A program made the position numbers and the translations under genes. From the sequence record OL770073.2: DNA of 64,000 nucleotides, one strand, 5' to 3'. Positions 2,916-51,089 of this stretch are shown here, piece after piece; within the stretch, counting starts at the first letter, position 1; every line of letters starts with the position of its first letter. The DNA is from Escherichia phage vB_EcoM-RPN226. The notes below the pieces were generated by a model. The model was not told where the DNA came from. It searched no databases and was given only the letters and a program-made list of their open reading frames with translations.

Positions 2916-4427
2916 ATGTCTATTGATATTTATAAAGATAAAAATGGCAAGCTGAACAAGAACTGGAAAATGATACACGCTAAACACCCTGAAATCATTG
3001 ATAGTATTGAGTTGCCATATGATGACCCTAAAACAAAAATCGTTTTAGCGATAAACGGAATGACAGAACTTAGCCGCTGTAAAAACTGTGGTGTTGAGAT
3101 GGATATCTCGAAGCTTGGCTCAGATTATTGCTCTAGAAAGTGTTCAGCTAACTCATCTGAAGTTAAGAGGAAAAAGCTTGATAGCATTAATCTTGAAGAA
3201 CGCGGCAAAAAAATTTCTGAATCTCTTAAAGGTAAATCCACTGCAAAATCTTGGAATACTCGTAAGAAAAAGTATGGTGAAAAAGGATTTAGCCAAACTG
3301 GGATAGAAGCTATCAAAAATAACGGAGTTAATTCTAGCGAAAAACGAATTAATACAATGATTACCCGTTATGGAGTTAAAAACCCGTTTCAACTGGAAAG
3401 CGTGATTGAAACTATATCCAAGGTTCAAACAGAGAATAACACCGCACGAAACCATTTACCCGGTTGGCTGTATGATAAGAATAAATTTAAACAAGTTTAT
3501 TCTAAATCTGGAATTAGAGGAATAATCAAAAAATCTGGCTGCGGTGCAAATTTAGCATATGTTTTATCACGTGAATATCAGCTCCGAGATATGAAAACTA
3601 CTTCGGCCGAAACAGAGATTCTGAGTTTTATTAATGAACTCGGGTTTGAAGCAGAGAAGACGCGCCAAGTGATAGCACCTTTTGAGCTGGATATCTATGT
3701 CCCAGAGAAGAAGCTTGCTATTGAGTTCAACGGTCTTTACTGGCACAGTTCAGGCTCAAAGGAACAGGACATTATTAAGAATAACCATCTCAAAAAGACT
3801 GAGATGTGTGAAGCACAAGGAATTCATCTGCTGCATATCTTCGAGAATGAATGGGTAGATGATACTAAACGCGAGATATGGAAATCGGTTATTAGAAATA
3901 AACTTGGTAAATCTGAACGCATCTATGCGCGTAAATGTAAGGTACATCCGGTTGATTCTAGAGCTGCTAAAGAGTTTTGTGAGTATAACCATTTACAGGG
4001 TCATGTCCCATTCCAGAATGCCCTGGGTTTATTCTATAACGATGAATTAGTACAGTTGGTCACATTTGGCAGAGGCCGCTATCAAGGTAAAACCGAATTA
4101 CTTCGTATGTGCACAAAACGTGGATACAGCGTAGTAGGTGGTGCTTCAAAACTTCTCAAGGATAAGAAATTTATTTCTTATGCTAACCGTAGATGGTCTA
4201 TGGGTAATGTGTATCAACAGATCGGTATGAAACAGATTGGTGTTACTCCGCCGTGTGACTATTATTTTGATAAAGGCCGTCTGTATCACAGGTCAAGTTA
4301 TATGAAACACTTATTAAAAGACAAGCTCAAAGTTTTTGATGAAAATCTTAGCGCGATAGAAAACTGTTATAACAACAAAATAAGAAGAATTTGGGATTGT
4401 GGTAATATAGTTTATGAATCCCAATAA
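2916..4427 (+). CDS. putative homing-endonuclease-like protein with Vsr/PD-(D/E)xK-type nuclease core and N-terminal Cys cluster
   Basis: 503-aa ORF antisense to the late cluster between genes 23 and 24; strong RBS taggagga; CKNCG...CSRKC zinc-finger-like cluster; FELDIYVPEKKLAIEFNGLYWHS resembles Vsr/DUF559 motif; no GIY-YIG motif. Confidence 0.55.
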   Translation: MSIDIYKDKNGKLNKNWKMIHAKHPEIIDSIELPYDDPKTKIVLAINGMTELSRCKNCGVEMDISKLGSDYCSRKCSANSSEVKRKKLDSINLEERGKKISESLKGKSTAKSWNTRKKKYGEKGFSQTGIEAIKNNGVNSSEKRINTMITRYGVKNPFQLESVIETISKVQTENNTARNHLPGWLYDKNKFKQVYSKSGIRGIIKKSGCGANLAYVLSREYQLRDMKTTSAETEILSFINELGFEAEKTRQVIAPFELDIYVPEKKLAIEFNGLYWHSSGSKEQDIIKNNHLKKTEMCEAQGIHLLHIFENEWVDDTKREIWKSVIRNKLGKSERIYARKCKVHPVDSRAAKEFCEYNHLQGHVPFQNALGLFYNDELVQLVTFGRGRYQGKTELLRMCTKRGYSVVGGASKLLKDKKFISYANRRWSMGNVYQQIGMKQIGVTPPCDYYFDKGRLYHRSSYMKHLLKDKLKVFDENLSAIENCYNNKIRRIWDCGNIVYESQ

Positions 4428-4435
4428 ACGAAAAA

Positions 4436-4467
4436 AAGGGAACCCGAAGGTTCCCTTTTTATTTTCT
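4436..4467. terminator. bidirectional terminator between 503-aa gene and gene 23
   Basis: hairpin GGGAACC-CGAA-GGTTCCC with A-run before and T-run after. Confidence 0.7.
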
Positions 4468-4477
4468 AAATTAAATC

Positions 4478-6043
4478 TTAGATACCTTTCACGTATACAC
4501 GGCGGAAGTAAGCATTTTTACCAAGGCTATTCAGAATAGAAGGCATACCGCTCTGGATGCGAGAAGCCGGAGCCTGAGCAGCGGATTCTGCAAATGGGTT
4601 GATACCGATACCGTAACGAGTTTTGAAACCCATAACAGGCTGGAAATTTTTCGGATCAGAACCACGCAGCGGAGTCAGAGCTACATATGGAGCATAGTAA
4701 ATACCAGCATCCATTTCGTTCGGACCTTTATAACCTACAGTGAAATAATCCTGTTTAGCATACTGGTCGATATATACACGGTATTTACCACCCAGAACAC
4801 CAGCAAATACTGACTTGGTAGTATCAGTGTTAAAGCCGGTAGCCAGACCCTGTGCAGCATAAGAAATGCCAGTATCAACTGAAGCCAGAACGTTAACTAC
4901 GTTACGGGAAGCGATAATGAAGTTACCTTCACCACGACCGGTCTGACGAGCAATTTCAACTGCTTCTTTGTCAATCTGGAACAACAGAGCTTTAAAGGAT
5001 TCACCCGCCCAGCGAGCACCACGAATATCAATCGGATCCTGGAAGTCAAATACACCAGCTTTAGAACCCGGAGTCAGGGTCATACCAGATTTACCAACCT
5101 GAGCTGAGTAGTTAATCCAATCAACAACTTCACGGTTGATTTCCAGCATGATTTCGGTAGCCAGAATACCAGACAGTTCAGCATCAGCATCCATACCGTG
5201 AACAGCGCGGAGGTCTTGTGCTAATTCGATAGAGTAAGCAGCTTTCAGCTGACGAGATTTAGCTTCGATAACTTGTTTATCGATACGGAAGCCCATTTCA
5301 TTCCATGGGTTATCGGTAGAACCGTTGAAACTTTCCTGGAGTTCAGCGATAGAAGTAGCCATACCTTCAGCGATTTCTACCAGTGCACCAGCTTCCATTT
5401 GTTTCTTAATTTCAGCATCTAATTTAGCTGCGTCAGTTGCACTTGAACTAATTGTTACTTGAGCAGAAGCTTGCAGATACACAGTACCAGTGTCCTGGAA
5501 GAAGTGAGTATAGATATCACCTGCTGTGGTTTGTGTGCTAGCAGCCAGAGCTGCGAATTTCTTAGCAGCACCCTGACCAGAGAACATTGCATCTGGACCA
5601 TACATTGGGTGGAATGCTTCTTTAGCACCAGAAGCGACCGGGTCTTTACCATATACTGCGCGCAGTGCGAATACCTGGCCAGTCGGGCTGTTCATCGGCT
5701 GAACACCGCAAATATCGAAAGCAATCAGGTTAGGAATAGCACGACGTACCATACCCATAACAGCTGGGCCAATCTGAGTTACTGCGCCAGAAGTCTGACC
5801 TGCAGCGATGTTGGTAGCATTGTAACCGTGGTCACCGCCGATTTCAGCTTCTGTTAAGAAAGAACCAAATGCCTGAGCAATTTTTTCGTCTTTGTACTCT
5901 GGAGCTGTCTGGAAATCTTTTTCCTGGTTTTCAAAGATTTTAGCGATAATCGCTTGTTTGCTATTAGCAATTTCCGGTAAACCTTCACCTTCCAGTAATG
6001 GCTTCCATTTGTTCAAAAGTTCAGCTTTAGTTTTGATAGTCAT
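4478..6043 (-). CDS. 23: major capsid protein gp23
   Basis: 521 aa, MTIKTKAELLNKWKPLLEGEG... matches remembered T4 gp23 almost residue for residue. Confidence 0.95.
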   Translation of the reverse strand: MTIKTKAELLNKWKPLLEGEGLPEIANSKQAIIAKIFENQEKDFQTAPEYKDEKIAQAFGSFLTEAEIGGDHGYNATNIAAGQTSGAVTQIGPAVMGMVRRAIPNLIAFDICGVQPMNSPTGQVFALRAVYGKDPVASGAKEAFHPMYGPDAMFSGQGAAKKFAALAASTQTTAGDIYTHFFQDTGTVYLQASAQVTISSSATDAAKLDAEIKKQMEAGALVEIAEGMATSIAELQESFNGSTDNPWNEMGFRIDKQVIEAKSRQLKAAYSIELAQDLRAVHGMDADAELSGILATEIMLEINREVVDWINYSAQVGKSGMTLTPGSKAGVFDFQDPIDIRGARWAGESFKALLFQIDKEAVEIARQTGRGEGNFIIASRNVVNVLASVDTGISYAAQGLATGFNTDTTKSVFAGVLGGKYRVYIDQYAKQDYFTVGYKGPNEMDAGIYYAPYVALTPLRGSDPKNFQPVMGFKTRYGIGINPFAESAAQAPASRIQSGMPSILNSLGKNAYFRRVYVKGI

Positions 6044-38070: not shown

Positions 38071-38767
<697 letters not shown>

Positions 38768-39740: not shown

Positions 39741-39813
39741 TGGGAATTAGCCAAGTTGGTAAGGCATAGCACTTTGACTGCTAGATGCAAAGGTTCGAGT
39801 CCTTTATTCCCAG
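39741..39813 (+). tRNA. tRNA-Gln (anticodon TTG)
   Basis: acceptor stem TGGGAAT/ATTCCCA, T-arm GGTTCGAGTCC, anticodon loop CTTTGAC read by hand. Confidence 0.8.
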
Positions 39814-39814
39814 C

Positions 39815-39901
39815 GCGAGAATGGTCAAATTGGTAAAGGCACAGCACTTAAAATGCTGCGGAATGATTTCCTTGTGGGTTCGAGTCCCACTTCTCGTACC
39901 A
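39815..39901 (+). tRNA. tRNA-Leu (anticodon TAA)
   Basis: acceptor GCGAGAA/TTCTCGT, long variable arm, T-arm GGTTCGAGTCC, encoded CCA; forms a dimer unit with tRNA-Gln. Confidence 0.8.
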
Positions 39902-39907
39902 AAGTTT

Positions 39908-39979
<72 letters not shown>

Positions 39980-39992
39980 AAATTTAATTTAC

Positions 39993-40065
39993 TCCGTGTA
40001 GCTCAGTTTGGTAGAGCGTCTGCTTTGGGAGCAGAATGTCGCAGGTTCAAATCCTGCCGCGGAGA
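39993..40065 (+). tRNA. tRNA-Pro (anticodon TGG)
   Basis: D-arm TAGCTCAGTTTGGTAGAGC, anticodon loop TTTGGGA, T-arm GGTTCAAATCC. Confidence 0.8.
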
Positions 40066-40067
40066 CT

Positions 40068-40154
40068 GGAGGCGTGGCAGAGTGGTTTAATGCACCGGTC
40101 TTGAAAACCGGCAGTCGCTCCGGCGACTCATAGGTTCAAATCCTATCGCCTCCG
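40068..40154 (+). tRNA. tRNA-Ser (anticodon TGA)
   Basis: acceptor GGAGGCG/CGCCTCC, long variable arm, anticodon loop CTTGAAA, T-arm GGTTCAAATCC. Confidence 0.8.
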
Positions 40155-40161
40155 TAATTTC

Positions 40162-40234
40162 GCTGATTTAGCTCAGTAGGTAGAGCAACTCACTTGTAAT
40201 GAGGATGTCGGCGGTTCGATTCCGTCAATCAGCA
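40162..40234 (+). tRNA. tRNA-Thr (anticodon TGT)
   Basis: acceptor GCTGATT/AATCAGC, D-arm TAGCTCAGTAGGTAGAGC, anticodon loop CTTGTAA, T-arm GGTTCGATTCC. Confidence 0.8.
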
Positions 40235-40240
40235 TATCAA

Positions 40241-40312
40241 GGCCCTGTAGCTGGAAGGTTCAAGCAAGCGACTCATAATCGCCAGATGGTGGTTCAATTC
40301 CACCCAGGGCCA
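40241..40312 (+). tRNA. tRNA with CAT anticodon (Ile by T4 analogy, would be called Met by anticodon alone)
   Basis: acceptor GGCCCTG/CAGGGCC, anticodon loop CTCATAA, T-arm GGTTCAATTCC. Confidence 0.7.
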
Positions 40313-40319
40313 TATTTTG

Positions 40320-40360
40320 GGAACATAAATACTCTTAGAAATAGGAGATATTTATGTTCC
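40320..40360 (+). promoter_or_regulatory. 12-bp perfect hairpin sequestering segB start codon; SD in loop
   Basis: GGAACATAAATA (40320-40331) pairs with TATTTATGTTCC (40349-40360); ATG 40354-40356 in 3' arm; loop carries AGGAGA; 5' arm contains CATAAATA, a near-late-promoter. Confidence 0.6.
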
Positions 40361-41019
40361 ATTACACTTATAAAATAACAAATAAAATTAATAATAAAAT
40401 CTATATAGGCGCTCATTCTACCGAAAATTTAGATGATGGATATATGGGTTCTGGTAAATTATTAAAAAGAGCCCAAGACAAGTATGGTATAGAAAATTTC
40501 TCTAAAGAAATATTAGAGTTCTTTGACGATAAAACCTCTATGTTTGAGTCAGAAAAGAATATTGTGACTGAAGAGTTTTTAAAGCGCCCTGATGTTTATA
40601 ATTTGAAATTAGGTGGTGAAGGTGGTTGGGACCATTTAAACACTAAAGAATATTTGGATAAAAAGAAAGAAGCTTCCTTAAAAGGGGCTGCTGCTTTTAA
40701 AACCAGATTTGAGAACGACCCAGACCTTAAAGAAAAATATCGTAAAATGGGTTCAGAAAGGTTTAAACAGCTTTGGGATAATCCTAAGTATAGAGAGAAA
40801 TTTTTAAATACTAAATCTTTCTTGGGTAAGACCCATACTCCTGAAACTATTAATAAAATGAAAGAATCTCACGCCAAAAATAAACACCAACAAGGCGAAA
40901 AGAATTCCCAATTTGGTATGATGTGGATTCATTCATTAGATGAAAAAGTTTCTAAACGTATTAAGAAAACTGACCCAATTCCAGAAGGATGGTTTAAAGG
41001 TCGAAAAATGAAATTTTAA
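40354..41019 (+). CDS. segB: GIY-YIG homing endonuclease SegB-like, embedded in tRNA cluster
   Basis: 221 aa, GIY-YIG motifs YTYKITN...KIYIGAH; start codon sits in the 3' arm of a 12-bp perfect hairpin. Confidence 0.8.
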   Translation: MFHYTYKITNKINNKIYIGAHSTENLDDGYMGSGKLLKRAQDKYGIENFSKEILEFFDDKTSMFESEKNIVTEEFLKRPDVYNLKLGGEGGWDHLNTKEYLDKKKEASLKGAAAFKTRFENDPDLKEKYRKMGSERFKQLWDNPKYREKFLNTKSFLGKTHTPETINKMKESHAKNKHQQGEKNSQFGMMWIHSLDEKVSKRIKKTDPIPEGWFKGRKMKF

Positions 41020-41022
41020 TTA

Positions 41023-41099
<77 letters not shown>

Positions 41100-45486: not shown

Positions 45487-46289
<803 letters not shown>

Positions 46290-46290
46290 T

Positions 46291-46320
46291 GTTTACTTCC
46301 TCCAAGGACTTTGATACTAT
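46291..46320 (+). promoter_or_regulatory. early promoter upstream of denV remnant
   Basis: GTTTAC at 46291-46296 and GATACTAT at 46313-46320. Confidence 0.55.
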
Positions 46321-46347
46321 ACATTCATCAACTACTTGGAGGAAATT

Positions 46348-46422
46348 ATGACTCGTATCAATTTAACAACTTCAGAATTATTTCTGGTGGTAAGGCTTAA
46401 ACAGTTTACGCTTAAGTATTAA
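46348..46422 (+). pseudogene. denV: denV (endonuclease V) remnant: first codons only
   Basis: early promoter plus RBS GGAGG plus ATG encoding MTRINLT (T4 DenV N-terminus), then divergence and a stop after 24 codons. Confidence 0.5.
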
Positions 46423-46433
46423 TATGATATAAT
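46403..46433 (+). promoter_or_regulatory. candidate early promoter for IPIII-like gene
   Basis: GTTTAC at 46403-46408 and TATAAT at 46428-46433 (19-nt spacer, weaker). Confidence 0.4.
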
Positions 46434-46463
46434 TACTCTATCAAAACAAACAAGGAAACAAAA

Positions 46464-47060
46464 ATGAAAACGTATCAAGAATTTATCGCCGAAGCTTCTG
46501 TAGGAAAGGTCCAAGGCATTAATAAAGATGAGTGGACTTACCGAGGAAACGGCTTTGACAACCCAGGAAACGGCTTTGACCCTAAAACAGCCCCTATTGA
46601 ACGGTATTTAGCTACAAAGGCTTCCGACTTTAAAGCTTTCGCCTGGAAAGGACTTCGCTGGCGTACCGACCTAAATATTGAAGTTGACGGACTTAAATTT
46701 GCTCATATTGAAGATGTTGTTGCTAGTAACTTGGACGCAGCTTTTGTTAAAGCTGACTTTGACCTTCGTCGCTGGAATTTAAAACTGTTCTCTAAACAGA
46801 AAGGTCCTGTGTTTGTGCCTAAAGCTGGTAAATGGGTTATTGATAATAAATTAGCTAAGGCTGTCAACTACGCTGGTCTTGAATTCGCCAAGCACAAATC
46901 ATCATGGAAAGGTCTTGATGCAATGGCTTTCCGTAAAGAATTTGCCGATGTTATGGCTAAAGGCGGCTTTAAGGCAGAAATAGACACCTCTAAAGGTATG
47001 TTTAAGGACGCTAATGTTCAGTACGCTTATGCCGTTGCTAATGCAGCCCGTGGTAATTAA
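46464..47060 (+). CDS. ipIII: internal protein (IPIII-like, capsid-targeted)
   Basis: 198 aa, CTS MKTYQEFIAEA. Confidence 0.65.
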   Translation: MKTYQEFIAEASVGKVQGINKDEWTYRGNGFDNPGNGFDPKTAPIERYLATKASDFKAFAWKGLRWRTDLNIEVDGLKFAHIEDVVASNLDAAFVKADFDLRRWNLKLFSKQKGPVFVPKAGKWVIDNKLAKAVNYAGLEFAKHKSSWKGLDAMAFRKEFADVMAKGGFKAEIDTSKGMFKDANVQYAYAVANAARGN

Positions 47061-47237
47061 TAAGGCCTATACTTAGGCCTATTTACATTCAAATAACATG
47101 GGAACAACCTGGACCTCATGATTCTATGAGGGATTCCCGCCAACCTGTAATAAGGTCGAGCCCAAGTGCGGTAATGGGTAAATACAGAAATGGACAATTC
47201 ACGCGCCATGGAATGGCCCAAATTTAGAGAGAATAAA

Positions 47238-47777
47238 ATGAGAACATTTTTAACTGGTCCTTATCTATCCCTGATGAATGCTTTTACACACCATTCTGAT
47301 GCTAGAGTAGAAGAAATTTGTAAGAACGGTTATGCCCCACCATTTGAAGACGTACTCAAGCAGTACTGTACACTTCGTTTAGACGGCGGCAGACAATCAG
47401 GTAAATCGACTGCAGTAACTAATTTTGCTGTTAATTGGCTGCACGACGGTGGAACAGTTATTGTTCTTTCTAATACTTCAGCTTATGCTAAAATTTCTGC
47501 TGGCAACATTAAAAAAGAATTTTCTCGTTATTCTAGCGATGATATTAGATTCCGTTTATTTACTGATTCTGTCCGTAGTTTTATTGGCAATGAAGGTTCT
47601 AAATTCCGCGGATTAACGCTTTCTCGTATTCTGTATATAATTGACGAGCCTATTAAAGCTCCTGATATGGATAAGATTTACAATGTCCATATTAAAGCAA
47701 TACAGCACTGCTGCAAAAGCAAATATTGCATCGGCGGTATTGCTCGTCCTCAATTTTTTGTGATTGGAATGCAATGA
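47238..47777 (+). CDS. small P-loop NTPase-like protein
   Basis: Walker A-like GGRQSGKST and Walker B-like ILYIIDEP; start at ATG 47238 after AGAGAGA. Confidence 0.45.
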   Translation: MRTFLTGPYLSLMNAFTHHSDARVEEICKNGYAPPFEDVLKQYCTLRLDGGRQSGKSTAVTNFAVNWLHDGGTVIVLSNTSAYAKISAGNIKKEFSRYSSDDIRFRLFTDSVRSFIGNEGSKFRGLTLSRILYIIDEPIKAPDMDKIYNVHIKAIQHCCKSKYCIGGIARPQFFVIGMQ

Positions 47778-48082
47778 TGACCACTATTGAAGTTTTTGAG
47801 TATTGTTATAACAGCCCAGTATGCAATAAAAGGGCTGTTGTAGAAAATTACGAGATTTACCATTTTAAACCTAAACGATATCGTTTGACTAAAGGTCCGT
47901 TTGCAGGGCAGCAGGTTCTTTGTACTGCTCCTAATGCAAGATTAATGAATAAAATTCCATATTTTACCATGGAATTTATTGATGGGCCTTTTAAAGGACT
48001 AATCACACAGAGTTTAATGGCATATGATTCTGAGCCATTTTTAATTAAAGAGCAATCTTGGATAAATTTATTTTCTAATTGA
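47774..48082 (+). CDS. hypothetical protein
   Basis: ATGATGA overlap with previous gene; Cys-rich N-terminus. Confidence 0.4.
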
Positions 48083-48090
48083 GAGGTTAT

Positions 48091-48453
48091 ATGAAAGCAT
48101 ATCAAATTCTTGAAGGCACGCATAAAGGTACTATTTATTTTGAAGACGGTATTCAAGCACGAATTATTGTCTCTAAAACCTTTAAAGAGGACTCTTTTGT
48201 AGACCCAGAAATTTTCTATGGTTTGCATGCCCGTGAAATTGAAATTGAGCAACAGCCTACAGTTAAAATTGAAGGTGGTCAACACCTGAACGTTAACGTT
48301 CTGCGCCGTGAAACTCTGGAAGATGCAGTTAAGCATCCAGAAAAATATCCGCAGCTGACCATCCGTGTATCCGGTTATGCAGTTCGCTTTAACTCTCTGA
48401 CTCCGGAACAGCAGCGCGACGTTATCGCTCGTACCTTTACCGAGAGTTTGTAA
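48091..48453 (+). CDS. autonomous glycyl radical cofactor GrcA/YfiD-like protein (T4 Y06I-like)
   Basis: C-terminal 60 aa including glycyl-radical motif RVSGYAV matches E. coli GrcA as I remember it; start ATG 48091 after GAGAGG. Confidence 0.85.
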
Positions 48454-48674
48454 TGGCAAAGATAATTATTGAAGGTTCTGAAGATGTGCTAAATGCTTTC
48501 GCCGAGTGGTTTAGTAATTCAGGCGAACAGCAATTTAATGAAGCGTGGAACATGGGTGATATTAGTGGAATTTATCCTACGACAGAAATTTCTGTTCAGG
48601 GATATGGCATTCATGAACCTATTCATTTAGTTGAATATGATTTGGGTACTGGTGAGGAAGTAAAATATGATTGA
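48453..48674 (+). CDS. hypothetical protein
   Basis: 73 aa, TAATG coupling to upstream gene. Confidence 0.4.
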   Translation: MAKIIIEGSEDVLNAFAEWFSNSGEQQFNEAWNMGDISGIYPTTEISVQGYGIHEPIHLVEYDLGTGEEVKYD

Positions 48675-48933
48675 AGATATTAAGGGTTATAAGCCACATA
48701 CTGAAGAGAAAATCGGTAAAGTGAATGCTATCAAAGATGCTGAAGTTCGTTTAGGACTTATTTTTGATGCTTTATATGACGAATTCTGGGAAGTGCTAAA
48801 TAATTGCGAAGACTATGAATTCGCGAAGAATTATGCTGAAAGCATCGATCAGTTAACTATTGCTAAAACGAAGCTCAAAGAAGCCAGTATGTGGGCTTGT
48901 CGCGCAGTGTTTCAACCAGAGGAAAAATATTAA
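48667..48933 (+). CDS. hypothetical protein; positional candidate for vs.4 (Acb2-like cyclic-oligonucleotide sponge)
   Basis: 88-aa acidic helical protein; fifth small ORF between the IP locus and regB, the position vs.4 holds in T4; assignment positional only. Confidence 0.4.
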
Positions 48934-49211
48934 TGGCTCAATTAAGCGCAGGGTTTGGTTATGAGTATTATACTGCCCCTCGTCGTGTATCTGTTGCTCC
49001 TAAGAAAATTCAAAGTCTTGATGACTTCCAGGAAGTAGTCCGTAAAGCTTTCCAGGACTATGCACGTTATCTTAAAGAAGATTCGCAGGACTGTCTCGAA
49101 GAAGATGAAATTGCTTACTATGAGCAGCGTCTTGAACAGCTTAAAAACCTACATGAGGTTCGTGCAGAAGTTACAAAGTCTATGAATAAATTGATTAGAT
49201 TTAAAGAATAA
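48933..49211 (+). CDS. hypothetical protein
   Basis: start MAQLSAGF overlapping previous stop (TAATG). Confidence 0.4.
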
Positions 49212-49213
49212 CT

Positions 49214-49253
49214 GTTTACTTTTCCTCTTGACTGTGGTATAATTTTTCTATCA
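49214..49253 (+). promoter_or_regulatory. early promoter for regB
   Basis: GTTTAC 49214-49219, TGgTATAAT with TATAAT at 49248-49253. Confidence 0.65.
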
Positions 49254-49270: not shown

Positions 49271-49732
49271 ATGACTATCAACACAGAAGTTTTTATCCGT
49301 CGAAATAAACTCCGTCGTCACTTTGAGTCGGAGTTTCGTCAAATTAACAATGAGATTCGTGAGGCATCAAAAGCAGCAGGGGTCTCATCGTTTCATCTAA
49401 AATATTCTCAGCATCTTCTTGATCGTGCAATTCAACGGGAGATCGATGAGACATATGTTTTTGAATTATTCCATAAAATAAAAGACCATGTTTTAGAAGT
49501 TAATGAATTCCTGAGTATGCCTCCGCGTCCTGACATTGACGAGGATTTTATTGATGGGGTTGAATATCGTCCTGGGCGTTTAGAAATCACAGATGGAAAT
49601 CTTTGGCTTGGATTTACAGTTTGTAAACCTAATGCGAAGTTCAAAGACCCGTCACTTCAATGTAGGATGGCCATTATCAACAGTCGTCGTTTACCAGGAA
49701 AGGCTTCTAAAGCAGTAATTAAAACTCAATGA
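49271..49732 (+). CDS. regB: endoribonuclease RegB
   Basis: 153 aa, matches T4 RegB length and position; early promoter with TATAAT at 49248. Confidence 0.8.
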   Translation: MTINTEVFIRRNKLRRHFESEFRQINNEIREASKAAGVSSFHLKYSQHLLDRAIQREIDETYVFELFHKIKDHVLEVNEFLSMPPRPDIDEDFIDGVEYRPGRLEITDGNLWLGFTVCKPNAKFKDPSLQCRMAIINSRRLPGKASKAVIKTQ

Positions 49733-50285: not shown

Positions 50286-50625
50286 AATTTTGGTTTTATG
50301 CATAGGATTAATTTCATTTTCTGCTTCTGCGTCAGCAGATGCATCATATACTGAAATTAGAGAATATGTAAACCGTACTGCCGCGGATTATTGTGGGAAA
50401 AATAAAGCATGCCAAGCTGAATTTGCGCAGAAATTAATATATGCATATAAAGACGGGGAAAGAGATAAATTAAGCAGATACAAAAATGATACTTTATTAA
50501 AACGATATGCTAAAAAGTGGAATACCTTAGAATGTTCAGTTGCGGAGGAGAAAGATAAAGCCGCTTGTCATTCAATGGTTGACCGTTTGGTAGATTCTTA
50601 TAATCGAGGATTGAGTACTAAATGA
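50278..50625 (+). CDS. secreted/periplasmic small protein
   Basis: 115 aa, signal peptide MTKILVLCIGLISFSASASA, four Cys. Confidence 0.45.
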   Translation: MTKILVLCIGLISFSASASADASYTEIREYVNRTAADYCGKNKACQAEFAQKLIYAYKDGERDKLSRYKNDTLLKRYAKKWNTLECSVAEEKDKAACHSMVDRLVDSYNRGLSTK

Positions 50626-51089
50626 TTGTAAAATATATCAAGGGCGATATTGTCGCCCTGTTTTCTAAAGGTAATAATATTGCTCATGGGTGTAATTGTT
50701 TTCATACAATGGGCGCCGGTGTGGCAGGACAATTAGCAAAGGCTTATCCAAAAATTCTGGAAGCTGATAAACTACAGACTGAATGGGGTGATGTAACTAA
50801 ACTTGGTTCTTATTCAGTCTATGAAAAATACTTTAGGACCCATAAAGCTTATTGCTTTAATCTTTATACACAGTTTGAGCCGGGACCTAATTTTGAGTAC
50901 TTTGCTTTAATGAATTGTATAATAGAATTAAATGAATTCGGAAAGAATAAAATAACAAAGCCTGTAATTTATATGCCAAGAATTGGTGCAGGTATCGGTG
51001 GCGGAAACTGGGATGTAATCGAAGAGATTTTAGATACGTATTCCACTAAACTAGAAATTGTGATTGTTGATTGGGAACCATTATTATGA
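50622..51089 (+). CDS. macro-domain-like protein (possible ADP-ribose derivative processing)
   Basis: motif AHGCNCFHTMGAGVAGQLAKAYP and later PRIGAGIGGGNW, reminiscent of Poa1-type macro domains. Confidence 0.45.
   Translation: MIVKYIKGDIVALFSKGNNIAHGCNCFHTMGAGVAGQLAKAYPKILEADKLQTEWGDVTKLGSYSVYEKYFRTHKAYCFNLYTQFEPGPNFEYFALMNCIIELNEFGKNKITKPVIYMPRIGAGIGGGNWDVIEEILDTYSTKLEIVIVDWEPLL

Follow-up and report, generated by a model that had tools for sequence, protein, structure and literature searches.

Phage T4 carries, upstream of regB and between vs.5 and vs.3, the gene vs.4, whose 88-residue product, Vs.4 or Acb2 (NP_049728), is known from a crystal structure (PDB entry 7UQ2; PMC10097602). The protein forms a hexamer with three ligands and binds 3'3'-cGAMP with a Kd of ∼30 nM; the bases are stacked by Y8 and F82, and polar contacts to cGAMP are made by Y8, H11, K23 and R79 (PMC10097602). 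Formation of the hexamer needs L29, A66, A73 and A77 and, more mildly, F33. S74N, T12I and A77I are loss-of-function alleles, and in mutants of the interface and the helix cap both oligomerisation and cGAMP binding are abolished (PMC10097602).

The Acb2 protein of PaMx33 (PDB entries 8H2J, 8H2X and 8IXZ; Huiting et al. 2023; Cao et al., PMC10312549) belongs to the same family and has the same hairpin fold, but possesses a second pocket, built from R67 and T74, through which the hexamer binds two cyclic trinucleotides. In T4 Acb2 (cGAMP Kd ∼84 nM in the same study) the trinucleotide pocket is closed by Y37, A57, L60, D61 and T64 together with the geometry of the helices, and no cA3 binding is observed, even for the D61R variant (PMC10312549). 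The decoy 2',3'-c-di-AMP is also a ligand of T4 Acb2, and its binding sets off the Panoptes (OptSE) defence (PMC12657218).

Two further anti-defence proteins are relevant for comparison. The hairpin domain of Tad1 (Thoeris anti-defence 1) is modelled jointly with that of Acb2 in Pfam family PF24729, and Tad1 is likewise a signal sponge. The signals sequestered by Tad1 are the gcADPR molecules of Thoeris, and the protein has structural elements beyond those of Acb2. Acb1 (gp57B of T4; PDB entry 7T26) shares the anti-CBASS function of Acb2, but it has an unrelated fold and acts by another mechanism, breaking the signals down as a phosphodiesterase where Acb2 sequesters them.

Here we describe an ORF in the window, i.e. 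the whole 64-kb stretch of DNA that was analysed, which we assign, with a probability of about 94%, as the acb2 (vs.4) anti-CBASS sponge gene of a T4-like phage. The coordinates of this gene and of other features are collected in Table 1.

Table 1. Location of vs.4/acb2 and of other features in the window.
Feature	Coordinates	Strand	Evidence or remarks
acb1 (T4 gene 57B), cyclic-oligonucleotide phosphodiesterase	38312..38767	+	Pfam PF23474 Acb1, 201.5 bits; PDB 7T26, E = 7.2e-62
Cluster of eight tRNAs	39741..41099	+	Gln, Leu, Gly, Pro, Ser, Thr, Met-CAT, Arg
GIY-YIG homing-endonuclease-like ORF (221 aa)	40354..41019		Inserted before tRNA-Arg
98-aa ORF between e and ipIII	45993..46289	+	Internal ATG; region 45993..47060
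vs.8 (195 aa)	47190..47777	+	T4 vs.8 162/194; PHROG 1488
vs.7	47774..48082	+	T4 vs.7 77/102; PHROG 2049
vs.6, GrcA-like autonomous glycyl-radical cofactor	48091..48453	+	Pfam Gly_radical, E = 2.5e-18; T4 Vs.6 118/120
vs.5 (73 aa)	48453..48674	+	PHROG 1986 over full length, E = 7e-42; T4 vs.5 match in two frames; DNA alignment
Shine-Dalgarno GGTGAGGA of vs.4, within 3' end of vs.5	48651..48658	+	Read from sequence
vs.4/acb2 CDS, predicted cyclic-dinucleotide sponge	48667..48933	+	7UQ2, PF24729, PHROG 717, conserved functional residues
vs.3 (92 aa)	48933..49211	+	T4 Vs.3 89/92; PHROG 2037
Promoter-like site TTTACT-17-TATAAT with TG extension, just upstream of regB	49215..49243		Promoter scan
regB endoribonuclease, downstream anchor	49271..49732	+	Pfam REGB_T4, E = 1.4e-68; T4 RegB 152/153
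tk.4, macro-domain protein	50622..51089	+	Pfam Macro, E = 1.6e-5; T4 Tk.4 137/155

Identification of the vs.4 orthologue

An earlier note on this DNA had proposed, on gene order only, that an ORF for an acidic, helical protein of 88 residues is the vs.4/acb2 gene. The ORF is found exactly at the site given there, running through 88 codons from ATG to TAA, and it is preceded by a Shine-Dalgarno sequence of which the GAGGA ends 8 nt upstream of the start codon. The encoded protein has a mass of 10.3 kDa and is indeed acidic, with 18 D+E against 12 K+R residues and a pI of 4.75. The assignment, at first positional, is now borne out by sequence alignment, Pfam, fold and synteny.

The protein can be aligned to T4 Vs.4 over 88 of 88 residues, 84 of which are identical. 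In a phmmer search of all PDB chains the crystal structure of the T4 protein (7UQ2, deposited as 'Vs.4') is the top match over the full length, with E = 2.8e-54, and PaMx33 Acb2 (8H2J and 8IXZ, named 'p26') follows as a weak second with E = 0.045, the latter protein being only ∼23% identical to Vs.4 of the window. The Pfam family PF24729 (Acb2_Tad1_hairpin) is matched over profile positions 1–58 of 58 with 70.9 bits, at a gathering cut-off of 27 bits. PHROG 717, the group from which Jenson et al. collected Vs.4 homologues (PMC10097602), is matched with E = 5.8e-32. Among the NCBIfam models none matched Vs.4, Acb1, Vs.5, Vs.3 or the 98-aa ORF. Orthology to T4 vs.4 and membership of the Acb2 family are established by these comparisons.

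A homologue of vs.4 is present in 1247 of 50,697 phage records searched by tblastn. Eight records, those of ime09 (two), REP4, SF2-1, CT01, IME537 (two) and TB004, encode a protein that is 100% identical to Vs.4 of the window, whereas the surrounding DNA is only ∼95% identical. Neither the family nor the exact sequence of Vs.4 of the window is therefore new. In some records a gene within the vs block is named 'anti-CBASS protein 2'; in most deposited relatives vs.4 is labelled 'hypothetical protein'.

At the codon level, 11 synonymous and four non-synonymous differences separate the gene from its T4 counterpart, which is consistent with purifying selection at vs.4. A chance ORF was considered as well, and is ruled out by the homologues in the 1247 phage records and by the mostly synonymous nature of the differences from T4.

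Genomic organisation of the vs.8–vs.3 block

The genes e, IPIII, vs.8 to vs.3, regB, vs.1, vs, tk.4 to tk.1 and tk follow each other on the plus strand, in an order that is collinear with the 59.7–67 kb region of T4 read in reverse. Each of the six ORFs between the internal protein (IP) genes and regB best-matches the T4 gene expected at its position, in agreement with the earlier proposal that they correspond to vs.8 to vs.3. The block of phage NR1 is collinear with that of the window as well, and the ORF at the vs.4 position is annotated there as Vs.4. A vs.4 orthologue at another ORF is ruled out by the gene-by-gene comparison with T4: in T4 and in the annotated relatives it is the ORF at this same position that is labelled vs.4.

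The six ORFs are closely packed. The vs.8/vs.7 junction is an ATGA motif with a 4-nt overlap, vs.7 and vs.6 are separated by 8 nt, and vs.6 and vs.5 overlap by 1 nt in a TAATG motif. The vs.5 frame, ending with a TGA stop, overlaps the start of vs.4 by 8 nt (ATGATTGA), an arrangement that points to translational coupling of the two genes, and at the vs.4/vs.3 junction, again TAATG, the last base of the vs.4 stop codon is also the first of the vs.3 ATG. Because the junctions are overlapping or tight, the earlier description of the block as translationally coupled is a fair one; the description of all six ORFs as small does not hold for vs.8, with its 195 residues.

Two genes of the block differ from their counterparts in the T4 reference. 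T4 vs.5 (4382..4558 on the minus strand of our T4 locus, L002) lacks one C relative to the window and NR1 (TTTCG-CGAG), with the result that the frame changes after codon 17 and that the gene, of 58 codons, ends 36 nt before vs.4 rather than overlapping it as in the window. The T4 reference thus looks like a frameshifted form, the 73-residue vs.5 of the window matching PHROG 1986 over its full length. In the case of vs.8, the first 32 residues of the 219-residue Vs.8 annotated in T4 are encoded in the window at 47126..47221 (region 47126..47227), in a frame other than that of the main vs.8 ORF. The PHROG 1488 consensus begins at residue 19 of the 195-residue ORF, and in NR1 a protein of 179 residues is annotated. 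The long N-terminus of T4 Vs.8 is perhaps a peculiarity of T4 or else an artefact of annotation.

Only vs.5 separates vs.6, which encodes the glycyl-radical cofactor, from the anti-CBASS sponge gene downstream. A cofactor of this type (GrcA/YfiD-like) stands in for the part of pyruvate formate-lyase that oxygen has damaged.

The flanks of vs.4 were examined in 46 related viral contigs. In 37 of these regB lies downstream of vs.4; vs.3 is often missing, the order of vs.5 and vs.6 is swapped in places, vs.5 is not always present, and vs.6 is often absent from the stretch covered. On these comparisons the region around acb2 is a hot spot, if a small one, for the turnover of genes. Since vs.3, vs.5 and vs.6 are so variable, counting ORFs back from regB is not generally a safe way to locate vs.4, and a position-based call of the gene is not reliable in general; it worked here because the block is collinear with that of T4.

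A scan for sigma-70 promoters between 45000 and 50500 yields 16 sites against 17.7 expected from shuffled sequence, and thus no excess. A pattern search for MotA boxes gives no site upstream of the vs.8–vs.3 block, and the region 47040–47240, read by eye, contains no convincing early promoter. As no clear promoter is found directly upstream of the block, the timing of vs.4 expression is taken from T4, by analogy with which the gene would be expressed early in infection.

Fold of Vs.4

In the AlphaFold2 model, calculated from the single sequence with a mean pLDDT of 78, Vs.4 consists of two long helices, comprising residues 13–46 and 50–81, in accordance with the helical character ascribed to it previously. 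In a Foldseek search against 350,542 PDB chains the best matches of the model are chains A, D and B of 7UQ2 (E ∼1e-9, TM-score 0.61), followed directly by four chains of PaMx33 Acb2 (8H2X and 8H2J; E ∼1e-2) with a probability of 1.00; the model is a monomer of moderate confidence, and this ranking is driven in part by sequence identity. The remaining matches, with E > 0.1, are to helical hairpins of a general kind, either designed or natural. The similarity to PaMx33 Acb2, which is weak by sequence, is thus apparent in the fold.

Superposition of the model on 7UQ2 gives a TM-score of 0.61 and an rmsd of 4.6 Å. A moderate score of this kind is expected, because the model is that of a monomer and the termini of the protein become ordered only within the hexamer. 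Vs.4 of the window is predicted to be a two-helix hairpin, and because it is 95% identical to the protein in the crystal structure this fold is not in doubt.

Ligand-binding residues and sequence variation

All of the residues known to contact cGAMP (Y8, H11, K23, S74, R79 and F82) are unchanged in Vs.4 of the window, as are the helix-cap residue T12 and the residues L29, F33, A66, A73 and A77 of the hexamer interface. The 12 positions tested experimentally in T4 Vs.4 are therefore identical in the two proteins (12/12), and the functional residues of the window protein are intact. Two of the cyclic-dinucleotide (CDN) contacts can also be recognised in PaMx33 Acb2, where Y11 and K26 are the equivalents of Y8 and K23.

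To place the four substitutions, A43V, D45N, C50Y and L60I, by which the protein differs from T4 Vs.4, 40 distinct Vs.4 sequences from 46 T4-like viral contigs were aligned. The N-terminal (...VN.IK.AE) and C-terminal segments are almost invariant among these 40 homologues: Y8, H11 and K23 are conserved in 40 of 40, and S74, A77, R79 and F82 in every full-length sequence. Residues ∼37–65, around the tip of the hairpin, are hypervariable, and all four substitutions (V43, N45, Y50 and I60 in the window protein) fall within this stretch.

In two of the contigs (L046, 1201-1478, and L047, 1201-1472) the vs.4 frame stops early, and the lengths of the tblastn matches are not multiples of 3. These truncated genes could represent natural losses of acb2, favoured by Panoptes-type defences, or sequencing errors.

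Predicted ligand range and mode of action

The residues that line the trinucleotide pocket are Y37, A57, I60, D61, T64 and T68 in Vs.4 of the window. The dual-pocket arrangement of the PaMx33/JBD67 type is absent: the equivalent of R67 is D61, as in T4, and that of T74 is T68. Because of the T4-type D61 and of pocket-lining residues as in T4 Acb2, binding of trinucleotides is not expected. On its sequence the protein is placed in the T4-type, CDN-only subgroup, and cyclic dinucleotides are its expected ligands.

The 95% identity to 7UQ2 and the conserved interface residues suggest that the helical hairpins assemble into an interlocked hexamer. Such a hexamer would contain three pockets, each lying between N- and C-terminal segments contributed by two protomers and each accommodating one CDN (3'3'-cGAMP or a related molecule). 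Within the pocket Y8 and F82 would stack on the bases, while Y8, H11, K23 and R79 would provide hydrogen bonds and salt bridges. By analogy with T4 Acb2, the affinity for cGAMP is predicted to be in the nanomolar range, and the protein would inhibit CBASS. The signal produced by the CD-NTase of the host would be sequestered, and not degraded, keeping CBASS effectors (e.g. the phospholipase CapV) under their activation threshold and allowing the phage to replicate. Cyclic-trinucleotide signals would, in T4-type phages, be left to the phosphodiesterase Acb1. The drawback that Panoptes poses for T4 Acb2 should, by the same analogy, apply to Vs.4 of the window too.

Alternative interpretations

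It is conceivable, though very unlikely, that the four substitutions give this Acb2 orthologue a ligand range unlike that of T4 Acb2; such a variant might have gained binding of cyclic trinucleotides or 3'cADPR, or lost that of the Panoptes decoy 2',3'-c-di-AMP. A clash with cA3 has been proposed for L60, among other residues, of T4 Acb2 (PMC10312549), and L60F, at the position of I60 in the window, came out of a T4 escape screen (PMC10097602). The exchange of leucine for isoleucine is, however, conservative, and no residue occurs more often than isoleucine in this column (14 of 40 homologues); moreover, D61 and T68 are unchanged, and even D61R failed to confer cA3 binding on T4 Acb2, the pocket being closed by the geometry of the helices (PMC10312549). 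Some Acb2 homologues do bind 3'cADPR (PMC12393519), triggering of Panoptes via the decoy could select for specificity variants (PMC12657218), and the hairpin tip is hypervariable; yet positions 43, 45 and 50 lie at the distal end of the hairpin, a long way from the CDN pocket formed by the terminal segments, and the CDN-contact residues are all identical to those of T4. The allele is common to the ime09-like phages, and we consider it improbable that it differs from T4 Acb2 in specificity, be it in capture of the Panoptes decoy or in access to the pocket at position 60. If it did, the hypervariable tip would bear the marks of an arms race, fought either over the specificity of the sponge or over its recognition by the host.

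Still less credible is the idea that the orthologue is non-functional in the phage of the window, being silent or in decay. The lack of a sigma-70-like or MotA-box promoter directly upstream of vs.8–vs.3 would fit a silent gene, the truncated frames in L046 and L047 illustrate that vs.4 can be lost, and loss of acb2 is selected by Panoptes (PMC12657218). Against this, the frame in the window is intact and of full length, has a strong Shine-Dalgarno sequence and is coupled to vs.5; synonymous differences from T4 exceed non-synonymous ones, the identical protein has been kept in eight independently sequenced phage records, and no functional residue has been altered. An intact acb2 gene with the ligand range of T4 Acb2 is the preferred reading.

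Other genes in the window

The window also contains the gene for Acb1. This phosphodiesterase degrades cyclic di- and trinucleotides. With acb1 and acb2 both recognised by their sequences, the phage is equipped against CBASS with the same pair of genes as T4.

The gene order around vs.4 and the cluster of eight tRNA genes are those of a T4-like phage (Tequatrovirus). Among the phage records compared no sequenced phage is more than ∼95.5% identical over this block, so that the window comes from one more mosaic member of the genus. For denV and ipII, which in T4 lie between ipIII and vs.8, no tblastn match is obtained anywhere in the 64-kb window; of IPII only the 14-residue N-terminal targeting peptide has a match. 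The 98-aa ORF between e and ipIII has no Pfam or NCBIfam match, but it has an N-terminus similar to the capsid-targeting peptide found in internal proteins and probably encodes an alternative internal protein.

Further along the window, the tRNA cluster is interrupted before tRNA-Arg by the homing-endonuclease-like ORF. The macro-domain gene tk.4 differs noticeably more from its T4 counterpart than do the neighbouring genes vs, vs.1, regB and tk, for which the identity is 97–99%.

Biological implications

For a T4-like phage vs.4 is an ordinary gene, and the value of the present finding lies in its correct annotation as acb2. The presence of acb1 together with acb2 predicts broad evasion of CBASS. 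At the same time, carriage of acb2 predicts that the phage is sensitive to decoy-based systems such as Panoptes, which are triggered by Acb2.
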